Below are positions 2,044-3,033 of a DNA stretch of 4,193 nt, piece after piece. The stretch covers positions 1 through 4,193 of the IMG/VR virus record IMGVR_UViG_2700989509_000012. One strand, written 5' to 3'. The position numbers and the translations under genes are program-made. Source of the DNA: a virus (lineage: Duplodnaviria > Heunggongvirae > Uroviricota > Caudoviricetes). How positions within the stretch are numbered: position 1 is the first letter of the stretch; the number at the start of each line of letters is the position of its first letter. The notes under the pieces were generated by a model, which made no database searches, was not told the DNA's origin, and worked only from the letters and a program-made list of their open reading frames with translations.

Positions 2044-3033
2044 TTATATACGTCCTTTAAGATAAGTCAGTCCTGGATGAAACCAGTAAGCCGGCACTTT
2101 TTTAAAGGGCGGATTATCAAAATCACGAAGAAGAGCCTCCCGCACAACTGCATCCTTGTCCGCACCACTGGCCAGCGCTTCAATCTCAGCAGCTATCTGC
2201 AGATATCCCATGCAACGACCAATGCACTTCATCAGCCCCTGCTTTTTATTGTTCTTCAGGTAATCAATGGCAAATTCAATGAGCTCCTCACTATGCTGGT
2301 GCGATGGCGGTGTTACTTTTCCATTTTCTGAGATGGTTATTTTCCCAGCATCACCGGATACAACAAAGGATGGCCGGTTACACTCCCATTCCAGGTCACT
2401 GAAATTATCATTATGAATACTGAAACACTCTGCGAGATTTCTGCTCATCACTTTCCGGCAATAATCGTAAAACGCAGCAAACTGCTCATCGCGGCGTTTT
2501 TTTTCAGGCTGCTGAAGATACTCTTTCAACCATGAAGCGCAGCTTAGATTCGCCGCGCGATCAGGAATAGCTTCTTTCATTTCGTCTGCTGCAAGCACCT
2601 CATTTTTTGTTGGGGTGCTTTTTTTCAATTCAGCGATATAGCACTCCAGTTTTTCAATACGTGATTCAATATCATCTTTTTCTGACCGCAATGCCGTCGG
2701 TGGCGTCTTCAGAGAACCAGTAATTCTTCCCGGTAGCTTTCCTCTGTAGGTTATCAACACATCCTGCGCCTCTAAAATGATGGGCCGCTTTTCCGGCAAC
2801 GGACCATCCCCTTCACATAACCCGGCAGCAACATCCATGAAAAACTGCTTCGCCTGCTTTTTCGCCTCAGCTTCGTAAAACTCCAGCGTGGCACCTTCAG
2901 TACGGTCAAGACTAATCGCCACATCTGGCAACAACAGTGACGGATACCCACCAATTTCCAGTGCCACAGTAACAGTAATCTTATCCGGGTAATTATTTAT
3001 CCCTTTAACAACCAGTTCGTATTTTTTCTTCAT
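2044..3033 (-). CDS. hypothetical protein, 329 aa, inserted between pinholin and SAR endolysin (moron/accessory gene of unknown function)
   Basis: Long minus-strand ORF, ATG 3033 to TAA 2046..2044. SD GGGGAGAG lies in the last holin codons; only 4 nt separate the holin stop from this ATG. No TMD or signal peptide by eye; predicted coiled-coil around DDIESRIEKLECYIAELKK. Visibly more AT-rich than flanking lysis genes (by eye, not counted). No family recognised. Confidence 0.85.
   Translation of the reverse strand: MKKKYELVVKGINNYPDKITVTVALEIGGYPSLLLPDVAISLDRTEGATLEFYEAEAKKQAKQFFMDVAAGLCEGDGPLPEKRPIILEAQDVLITYRGKLPGRITGSLKTPPTALRSEKDDIESRIEKLECYIAELKKSTPTKNEVLAADEMKEAIPDRAANLSCASWLKEYLQQPEKKRRDEQFAAFYDYCRKVMSRNLAECFSIHNDNFSDLEWECNRPSFVVSGDAGKITISENGKVTPPSHQHSEELIEFAIDYLKNNKKQGLMKCIGRCMGYLQIAAEIEALASGADKDAVVREALLRDFDNPPFKKVPAYWFHPGLTYLKGRI

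Follow-up and report, generated by a model that had tools for sequence, protein, structure and literature searches.

What is the 329-aa gene that separates the holin (S) and endolysin (R) genes in a 4,193-nt stretch of tailed-phage DNA (positions 1 to 4,193 of IMG/VR record IMGVR_UViG_2700989509_000012; hereafter the window), and what might its product do in a lysis cassette? We find that it is almost certainly a long mosaic allele of the YdfR/DUF1327 family, whose members are optional, non-essential late genes of lambdoid and Stx prophages that occupy the slot separating the S21-type holin from its endolysin.

The gene and its junctions

A first-pass annotation of the window had described an ATG-initiated, 329-aa ORF, and the ORF list bears this out and places it on the minus strand; hundreds of homologues and dN/dS values of 0.2-0.3 in both terminal modules mark it as real coding sequence. 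Its neighborhood is organized as follows:

3041-3048, minus strand: SD-like GGGGAGAG in the last holin codons (from the sequence)
3038..3253, minus strand: S21-type class II holin (pinholin type), 71 aa, with a dual start (Met1/Met4), forming the left boundary of the slot (PF04971, E 1.4e-32)
2044..3033, minus strand: YdfR-family gene, 329 aa, stop codon 2044-2046, ATG 3031-3033 (ORF list; PHROG 1085 over aa 1-329)
2002..2043, minus strand: 42-nt spacer before the endolysin ATG, lacking an SD (sequence; boundaries from pairwise blastn)
1468..2001, minus strand: phage lysozyme of the 933W/Qin R type, 177 aa, forming the right boundary of the slot (PF00959, E 2.8e-24; PHROG 7, endolysin)

The Pfam matches agree with the earlier assignment of the flanks to an S21-type holin upstream and a phage lysozyme with a hydrophobic N-terminus, as is typical of SAR endolysins, downstream; Rz/Rz1 come next after the lysozyme. 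The holin is 94-100% identical to those of Stx phages, 933W and 434. As had been read from the sequence, the start codon lies 4 nt past the holin stop (...CGGGGAGAG TAA AGCG ATG, with the holin TAA at 3038-3040), behind the SD-like element embedded in the final holin codons. The same 4-nt spacing after S serves R in 933W and ydfR in the K-12 Qin prophage, and recurs in the divergent DUF1327 genes of phages Evi, mEp460 and PhiR42_1. The junction with the endolysin likewise matches the earlier description: it contains no GGAG and ends ...CCTGATAAATATCC before the endolysin ATG. In pairwise blastn, its last ~22 nt belong to the right flank common to the occupied slot variants compared, while homology to the empty-slot 933W cassette restarts only ~27 nt inside R. 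The spacer measures 42 or 36 nt in 50 of 80 IMG/VR loci.

The predicted 37-kDa product is soluble, with no hydrophobic segment (maximum Kyte-Doolittle 19-residue mean 1.18), in keeping with the cytoplasmic location proposed for it. The lower GC noted by the first-pass annotation is also evident, at 45.6% for the ORF against 50.0% for the holin and 54.5% for both the endolysin and Rz, as is a lower GC3 (43.9% against 56-60%). In a consensus scan the minus strand of the window showed no sigma-70-like site, and the coding strand around the ORF had no convincing intrinsic terminator. The single strong terminator-like hairpin lies within the ORF on the opposite strand, and an Rfam scan of the window matched no RNA family. 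Co-transcription with the late lysis genes had been put forward as the sole route of expression, and the anatomy of the locus points the same way: a gene with no promoter of its own, whose ATG follows the holin stop by 4 nt behind an SD embedded in S, should be made only from the Q-dependent late transcript, alongside the lysis proteins.

Classical morons come with a promoter and a terminator of their own and are active in the lysogen. The lambdoid morons bor, lom and stx resemble the window gene in being optional late-region insertions with a GC content below that of their neighbors. However, the window gene has neither a promoter nor a terminator on its own strand, and its translation is linked to that of S; it is thus not an autonomous unit of this kind.

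A mosaic family in an optional slot

Although no family had been recognized at first, the window protein matches Pfam DUF1327 (PF07041) with 151.8 bits against a gathering cut-off of 25 (E 6e-45; aa 1-112 on profile positions 1-92 of 93) and PHROG 1085 over its entire length (E 3.6e-179; aa 1-329 on profile positions 1-296 of 296). All eight PHROG matches are labeled 'unknown function'. The gene is already known: the family has a long-standing Pfam entry and a K-12 name, and near-identical copies are annotated in RefSeq and GenBank, including a 99.7% identical RefSeq copy named 'YdfR family protein'. It goes unmentioned in the available part of a 2021 BMC Genomics survey of Stx-phage lytic cassettes.

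The K-12 representative, YdfR (b1555, P76160) of the Qin cryptic prophage, is a DUF1327 protein that occupies the same slot (essQ-ydfR-rrrQ) and is 47% identical to the window protein over aa 1-74 (BLASTP, E 3e-20). It is only 103 aa long, comprising the N-module and a short helix, and overlaps rrrQ by 4 nt, whereas the window protein has 217 residues more (a coiled coil, an insert, a helix and an orphan C-module) and is followed by the spacer. Closer relatives are found in Stx phages. The S-ORF-R DNA block of the Stx2a phage Stx2_95 (BCI50300, 329 aa) is 98.7% identical to that of the window, with N- and C-module proteins 100% and 99.1% identical. The 268-aa allele of Stx2-converting phage 86 (orf5/YP_794052) combines the same N- and C-modules in the same slot, the latter at 85% identity, but does not contain roughly aa 121-214 (coiled coil, insert and helix), and an antisense ORF and ~450 nt precede R. 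Both phage copies are annotated only as hypothetical or YdfR-family proteins. A location between an S21-type holin and a lysozyme is thus common to the window, K-12 Qin, the Stx phages and the divergent members, as an empirical regularity rather than a formal hallmark.

DNA of the family occurs in 3003 of the 5426 complete genomes of E. coli, which contain ~6788 YdfR-like places against 15136 holin places; among phage records the holin occurs in 436, DUF1327 in 101 and the C-module in 5. The YdfR family is therefore among the commonest uncharacterized genes in E. coli prophages, and its location is the very cassette by which the cell is lysed and Shiga toxin set free.

In 933W and 434, whose holins are 94-97% identical to that of the window, the slot is empty and R directly follows S, while alleles of 114, 211, 268, 305 and 329 aa are found elsewhere, which bears out the earlier idea of the S-R junction as a variable hotspot, with an accessory gene that is optional there. 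The slot is not stocked with assorted cargo genes: unrelated cargo was rejected as an explanation, since every occupant found shares modules of one mosaic family. Its building blocks are an N-module (DUF1327), a coiled coil, inserts that are optional and an orphan C-module of 111 aa. The N- and C-modules are each also found alone in the slot. All 80 C-module loci in IMG/VR lie between S and R, about half of them without DUF1327, and in 68 of the 80 the ATG lies 3-4 nt past the holin stop; DUF1327 genes at only 41-57% identity likewise start 4 nt after S. A recent fusion of two unrelated genes was also rejected, given that the N+C architecture is retained at 25-32% overall identity. In Salmonella the C-module gene has moved, yet it lies directly upstream of the holin in the late operon. 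A scan of the genome collection for distant C-domain loci returned only three, all from Escherichia or Shigella.

Such a distribution raises the question of whether the gene is simply a neutral or nearly neutral passenger, of no significant benefit to phage or host, that stays in the slot solely through recombination at the highly conserved S and R flanks. Its absence from 933W and 434 and the little effect of overexpressing the K-12 homologue (PMC13232886) are what one would expect of a passenger, as is the frequency of truncated, split and frameshifted copies (e.g., forms of 111-140 aa that large gaps separate from S in 11 of the 80 loci, and frameshifted copies in Shigella and E. coli). We nevertheless regard this explanation as very unlikely, because dN/dS remains at 0.2-0.3 in both modules, including for pairs with dS > 1.4, the bipartite architecture persists among relatives of 25-32% identity, the C-module is kept at a different position in Salmonella and the gene is carried by over half of E. 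coli genomes.

Modules of the window protein

Alignments, profile searches and AlphaFold2 models divide the protein into five parts:

2698..3033, minus strand: N-module, aa 1-112, Pfam DUF1327 (PF07041)
2620..2694, minus strand: coiled-coil helix, aa 114-138, SEKDDIESRIEKLECYIAELKKS (AlphaFold2 helix 114-138; PDB profile search)
2509..2619, minus strand: optional insert, aa 139-175, TPTKNEVLAADEMKEAIPDRAANLSCASWLKEYLQQP (alignment)
2419..2508, minus strand: conserved helix, aa 176-205, EKKRRDEQFAAFYDYCRKV... (AlphaFold2 helix 183-204, low confidence)
2047..2379, minus strand: C-module, an orphan domain, aa 219-329 (small beta-meander and four helices)

The structured core of the N-module is predicted to span aa 1-73, with three beta-strands followed by a long helix (AlphaFold2; pLDDT 75-91 for aa 1-70), and the module evolves with a dN/dS of 0.22-0.28. 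The beta-rich N-terminus and central coiled coil proposed from the sequence are reasonable in light of the modeled strands and helices and of the PDB profile search, which found coiled coils only. The coiled-coil helix, in which L129, E130, L136 and K138 are near-invariant across 118 homologues, is retained even in the 185- and 213-aa forms that have no DUF1327, and probably makes the protein oligomeric. The insert that follows is confined in the alignment to the 329-, 305- and 246-aa alleles and some of the 211-aa ones, and is the lowest-GC part of the gene (42.8% in the middle region). In the conserved helix, Q184, A186, A187, F188, D190, C192 and R198 are near-invariant in E. coli homologues.

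The C-module carries the motif GR(C/S/A)MGxLQxAAE ... DxPPFK ... W..PG..YL, with L259, G272, R273, L278, Q279, A281, P309, K311, W317, P320 and Y324 invariant in relatives of 30-40% identity. The Cys, His and acidic residues that had been singled out as conserved-looking (HNDNFSDLEWECNRP, SGDAGK) are not conserved in the same relatives, with position 274 being C, S or A. The variation of the Cys/His residues, together with a confident model of a small beta-meander and helical bundle, led us to reject an enzymatic or metal-binding C-domain. A first AlphaFold2 run on an alignment of E. coli-only homologues was poor (pLDDT 51.7), and the C-domain model became confident only once Salmonella and metagenomic relatives joined the alignment. 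As modeled, the fold is that of a generic small helical bundle, and neither the N- nor the C-module is enzyme-like.

We recovered no relatives of the C-module by structure or sequence outside Escherichia, Shigella and Salmonella. The PDB profile search for sequence relatives with solved structures gave chance coiled-coil matches only (E at least 0.4), Foldseek with the full-length model against PDB returned nothing below E 0.2, and the C-domain against BFVD gave a best E of 0.8. The family thus displays an unusual module-swapping around an orphan, well-folded domain limited to these three genera. Foldseek against PDB also did not significantly match the N-module to the dsRBD fold (E 0.4-0.6, probability 0.08-0.47; none at E<=0.001), and its beta-beta-beta-alpha order in the AlphaFold2 model is without the first dsRBD helix.

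These architectures bear on the earlier proposal that the gene is single-gene cargo of the lysis cassette with a role in anti-phage defense, abortive infection or superinfection exclusion. Variability, a mosaic makeup and a GC below that of the neighboring genes, all seen at this locus, are common in prophage defense hotspots, and the C-termini are diverse. Nonetheless, the alleles belong to one family rather than to assorted systems, and none of the folds resembles a nuclease, NTPase, TIR, Sir2 or membrane effector, the C-module being a small helical bundle. A search of PADLOC-DB v2 matched 0 families even at E<=10, and the gene, only 4 nt from S and lacking any promoter-like site on the coding strand, should not be expressed in the lysogen. 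In K-12, ydfR likewise draws almost no RNA-seq reads except in an overexpressing strain, and its overexpression is non-toxic (PMC13232886). A defense function is hence very unlikely, and we set it aside as unsupported.

RNase E and lysis timing as candidate roles

The first biochemical lead on the family, dating only from 2026, is the binding of RNase E, reported for the K-12 protein only (PMC13232886). There, aa 1-72 of YdfR were recovered by two-hybrid screening, full-length YdfR also interacts with Rne(1-597), and Rne(1-598) co-purifies with Strep-YdfR, as does DNase-resistant nucleic acid, although for the authors a contaminant remained a conceivable origin of this RNA. Overexpression of ydfR changed very few transcripts and left growth unaffected (PMC13232886). 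The 47% identity between the window protein and K-12 YdfR falls on exactly the region recovered in that screen.

By analogy, we tentatively read the window protein as a late-expressed cytoplasmic adaptor that docks on RNase E and modulates late RNA processing or decay, which is possible and the likeliest of the readings considered. Like K-12 YdfR, it would bind the N-terminal, catalytic half of RNase E through its N-module, with RNA as a possible further target, and a second partner would be recruited by the interchangeable C-terminal parts. The protein would thereby act on how RNA is processed or decays as the lytic cycle ends, and not on envelope breakage itself. Both the binding of RNase E by the window protein and its relevance to the phage are presumed from the K-12 homologue. 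Observations on the side of such an adaptor are the N+C organization kept at 25-32% identity, the purifying selection and a soluble protein with a coiled coil, along with the weak and non-significant likeness of the N-module to dsRNA-binding domains. On the other side, two-hybrid screens are prone to false positives, a binding surface need not be conserved at 47% identity and no structural relative backs any specific biochemical activity. Moreover, as about half of the IMG/VR C-module genes are without DUF1327, the activity of the C-module must be independent of docking on RNase E.

The strict adjacency to S could instead mean a direct role in lysis. In this main rival to the adaptor, a cytoplasmic protein made in stoichiometry with the pinholin would delay or sharpen triggering by binding either S21, at a part exposed to the cytoplasm, or the SAR endolysin while it is tethered to the membrane. 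Small non-enzymatic proteins such as T4 RIII, P1 LydB and P2 LysA/LysB are co-expressed with holin and endolysin and are dispensable for lysis itself. The window protein is comparable in these respects, with its co-expression predicted from the anatomy of the locus, but has no sequence or fold similarity to lysis-annotated proteins; a regulator of lysis timing would resemble the cytoplasmic antiholins T4 RIII or P1 LydB in function. The extreme conservation of position, across both the 68 IMG/VR loci and the diverged DUF1327 genes, is consistent with such a role, although recombination in the conserved S and R flanks can also explain it. The relocated Salmonella C-module gene remains co-expressed with lysis genes even without flanking homology. 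Further, the insertion parts R from the SD used in 933W and leaves it with a leader that has none, which probably alters the S:R ratio. The Keio ydfR mutant is also among the hits for envelope leakiness in a CPRG screen (PMC3879167 supplements), but the hit is unvalidated and we suspect that it could reflect a polar effect of the kan cassette on rrrQ. Against a timing role, 933W and 434 lyse without the gene, the dual start of S21-type holins, present here as Met1 and Met4, already supplies an antiholin, and no lysis-annotated PHROG, Pfam or NCBIfam family is similar to the protein. On balance, we consider it doubtful that the gene regulates lysis timing.

Returning to the adaptor, its extension to the whole family is a distinctly improbable proposition, with wide implications. 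YdfR-family proteins would be modular, rapidly reshuffled late adaptors, in which DUF1327 docks on RNase E or RNA and the C-modules recruit differing partners, thereby tuning the fate of late and lysis mRNAs, and hence lysis timing and possibly Shiga-toxin release. If true, they would constitute a new class of lysis-cassette regulator, present in the prophages of over half of E. coli strains and in many Stx phages. Any effect of the gene on late mRNA fate or on lysis timing would matter for burst size and for the release of toxin by STEC.

Protein regulators or binders of RNase E include RapZ and RraA/RraB, as well as T7 gp0.7, phiKZ Dip and T4 Srd from phages; none is homologous to the window protein. 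The three phage proteins are products of early or middle genes of virulent phages, whereas the window gene is a late gene of temperate phages. RapZ binds RNase E at its catalytic N-terminal half. K-12 YdfR does so too, and co-purifies RNA (PMC13232886).

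Family identity and the lysis cassette

We found the 329-aa gene between the S21-type holin gene (S) and the endolysin gene (R) to be a catalogued member of the uncharacterized YdfR family. Pfam DUF1327 covers its residues 1-112 (151.8 bits; cut-off 25), PHROG 1085, a group of unknown function, aligns with the protein over its full length (E 3.6e-179), and a 99.7% identical E. coli O103:H2 copy bears the annotation 'YdfR family protein'. The name-giving K-12 ydfR of the Qin prophage lies between essQ (holin) and rrrQ (lysozyme), likewise starts 4 nt beyond the holin stop, and encodes a protein with 47% identity to the window protein over residues 1-74 of the latter. 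The S-ORF-R block of the Stx2a phage Stx2_95 is 98.7% identical to the window. The ORF list and Pfam/PHROG profile searches place all lysis-region genes on the minus strand:

Genes of the window
3' end only, minus: putative SASA/NanS-type esterase gene, by synteny with the near-identical Stx2_95 locus
3643-3822, minus: DUF1378 gene
3330-3776, minus: DUF826 gene (mechanical ORF)
3038-3253, minus: S21-type holin, 71 aa
2044-3033, minus: YdfR-family ORF, 329 aa
1468-2001, minus: phage lysozyme, 177 aa, hydrophobic N-terminus
1172-1390, minus: small hydrophobic ORF, 72 aa, between endolysin and Rz
minus: Rz/Rz1

The junction CGGGGAGAG-TAA-AGCG-ATG sets the ORF start 4 nt past the holin stop, with the SD-like GGGGAGAG in the final holin codons. 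The 42-nt junction to the endolysin ATG contains no GGAG. The ORF is more AT-rich (GC 45.6%, GC3 43.9%) than the holin (50.0%), endolysin and Rz genes (both 54.5%; GC3 56-60% across these three). Its position directly behind the holin gene and the lack of a sigma-70-like site on its strand in a consensus scan of the window agree with late expression. The first-pass annotation was thus right in its physical description, omitting only the strand; its reading of an optional, late-expressed, low-GC gene in a variable hotspot holds, but its claims of novelty and of conserved Cys/His/acidic residues do not, since the family is recognized and the cysteines, HNDNF and SGDAGK stretches vary among relatives.

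The holin begins MYQM..., a Met1/Met4 dual start (3244-3253, minus) typical of S21-type holin/antiholin pairs, which indicates that the cassette already carries its own intrinsic antiholin. The 148-aa mechanical DUF826 ORF has a GTG start and overlaps the DUF1378 gene. Since the Pfam match covers it only from residue 59 onward and the product is annotated as 89 aa in homologous loci, its real start is probably the ATG at 3602. The 72-aa ORF, which lacks annotation in Stx2_95, has a 45-aa core matching PHROG 6632 (unknown function) that includes an 18-residue hydrophobic stretch, and its TGA (1172-1174) lies 1 nt ahead of the ATG at 1168-1170 from which Rz probably starts; it appears to encode a small membrane protein and to be coupled to Rz. 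Downstream of Rz, a 74-aa ORF (455-679, minus) matches only positions 100-172 of the 291 in PHROG 2571 (unknown function) and looks like the remnant of a longer gene.

Occupancy of the holin-endolysin slot

The slot between S and R is empty in 933W and 434, where R directly follows the holin gene; in 933W the R ATG lies 4 nt past the S stop, the exact start position of the window ORF. Elsewhere it is filled by YdfR-family genes of 114, 211 and 268 aa (other phages) or by 305-aa and DUF1327-less 213-aa forms (other genomes). Among deposited phage records, 436 contain the holin, 101 the DUF1327 module and five the C-terminal orphan domain (C-module). Across complete E. coli genomes, megablast found 6788 YdfR-like against 15136 holin places and therefore about 45% of cassettes occupied, a rough figure because divergent alleles escape megablast; YdfR-family DNA occurs in 3003 of 5426 genomes, 491 of which carry at least 80% of the long allele.

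The DUF1327 genes of phages Evi, mEp460 and PhiR42_1, with 41-57% identity, still start 4 nt past S. Each of the 80 IMG/VR loci with a C-module has the gene in the S-R slot, and in 68 of them the gene starts 3-4 nt past the holin stop. This extreme positional conservation, together with the altered translation context of R, is the main support for a direct lysis-timing regulator, a reading that we regard as somewhat less likely than the adaptor discussed below.

Where 424-452 nt separate the YdfR-like gene from R, the slot has a second occupant, absent from the window, on the strand opposite to the YdfR-like gene. L002 and L007 encode ~104 aa there; the PhiR5_1 version is shorter and annotated as DUF1823-containing:

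Antisense slot ORF in comparison loci
L002: 2731-3045, opposite to the YdfR-like gene
L007: 4652-4966, opposite to the YdfR-like gene
L003: 2714-2974, opposite to the YdfR-like gene

Mosaic architecture, range and selection

What is new here is descriptive: a module map, the slot statistics, a narrow taxonomic range, and a separable orphan C-terminal domain with a confident model. Variant alignment and pairwise DNA comparison gave the following map:

Modules of the window protein
aa 1-112: N-module, DUF1327
aa 114-138: coiled-coil helix
aa 139-175: optional insert
aa 176-205: conserved helix
aa 219-329: C-module

Breakpoints fall near residues 113, 120, 177, 193, 208 and 213-215. The left flank, holin through ATG, is common to every variant compared; the right flank, common to occupied variants, begins ~20 nt past the stop, ~22 nt before the R ATG. 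The commonest forms in the 80 loci are of 185 (n=24), 268 (n=16), 213 (n=13) and 329 aa (n=8), the 185- and 213-aa forms lacking DUF1327; the N- and C-modules, each of which also occurs alone, are thus separable. P0042, a 305-aa allele on 275 contigs (L011-L013; 4001-4918 in L011), is 93% identical to the window protein over residues 1-208, then has an unrelated ~96-aa C-terminus without a Pfam match, 511 nt from R. Within the optional insert and antisense to the lysis genes, a hairpin of ten base pairs with a T-run behind it (2593-2620, plus strand; -18.2 kcal/mol; z = -4.15 against shuffles) resembles an intrinsic terminator and might stop antisense transcription from entering the cassette.

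Searched exhaustively with phmmer, 1.84 billion representative proteins yielded only 29 matches to residues 114-329, the divergent ones being 38-47% identical in the C-module. Most of the divergent ones retain a DUF1327-like N-terminus and the C-module around a different middle; the long architecture is therefore old, ruling out a recent fusion as its origin. Named sources of C-module relatives are only Escherichia, Shigella and Salmonella. In Salmonella prophages the gene lies outside the S-R slot, just upstream of the holin and downstream of the Q antiterminator; it stays linked to the late/lysis unit even without the E. coli flanks. Between Q and this gene, a ParE-toxin-like and an HTH gene (L017 2828-3528; L018 2025-2725) look like a toxin-antitoxin-like pair in the late leader region.

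Against the window allele, dN/dS is 0.22-0.28 for the N-module, also at dS ~1.5, and 0.17-0.40 for the C-module in comparisons with dS of at least 0.1; L259, G272, R273, L278, Q279, A281, P309, K311, W317, P320 and Y324 are invariant in the latter. That the gene is a near-neutral passenger seems improbable to us. DUF1327-less copies in Shigella flexneri and E. coli ECMA0423 are frameshifted ~20 codons before the end (L015, L016, 4674-5329), and 11 of the 80 loci hold split or truncated 111-140-aa forms with a 97-590 nt gap to S; gene decay is therefore common in cryptic prophages.

Structure and possible function

An alignment restricted to E. coli homologues led to an AF2 model of pLDDT 51.7, the only usable parts being residues 1-73 (three strands and a long helix, pLDDT 75-91) and 223-260. 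A more diverse alignment yielded a C-module model (residues 215-329; pLDDT 90.7, pTM 0.83) in which four helices follow a three-stranded meander. The best E was 0.8 for the C-module in BFVD and 0.2 for the full-length model against the PDB (Foldseek), the latter search giving scattered non-significant dsRBD matches to the N-module; a profile search of PDB sequences returned coiled coils only. Nothing in these models suggests an enzyme-like protein, and the 329-aa protein has no hydrophobic segment.

Experimental data in the family concern only K-12 YdfR. A two-hybrid screen recovered its residues 1-72, full-length YdfR interacts with Rne(1-597), and Strep-YdfR co-purifies Rne(1-598); DNase-resistant nucleic acid also co-purifies with YdfR (PMC13232886). 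The gene shows almost no RNA-seq reads unless overexpressed, and overexpression alters few transcripts and leaves growth unaffected (PMC13232886). A PADLOC search with the window protein returned 0 matches at E<=10, leaving the previously proposed defence or exclusion function unsupported and, in our view, very unlikely. Given this null and the K-12 experiments, we tentatively favor a late-expressed cytoplasmic adaptor that would dock through its N-module on the catalytic half of RNase E, on RNA or on both, and would engage a further partner through its exchangeable C-terminal parts. The Keio ydfR mutant is also among unvalidated envelope-leakiness hits (PMC3879167), which could reflect polarity on the lysozyme gene that follows.
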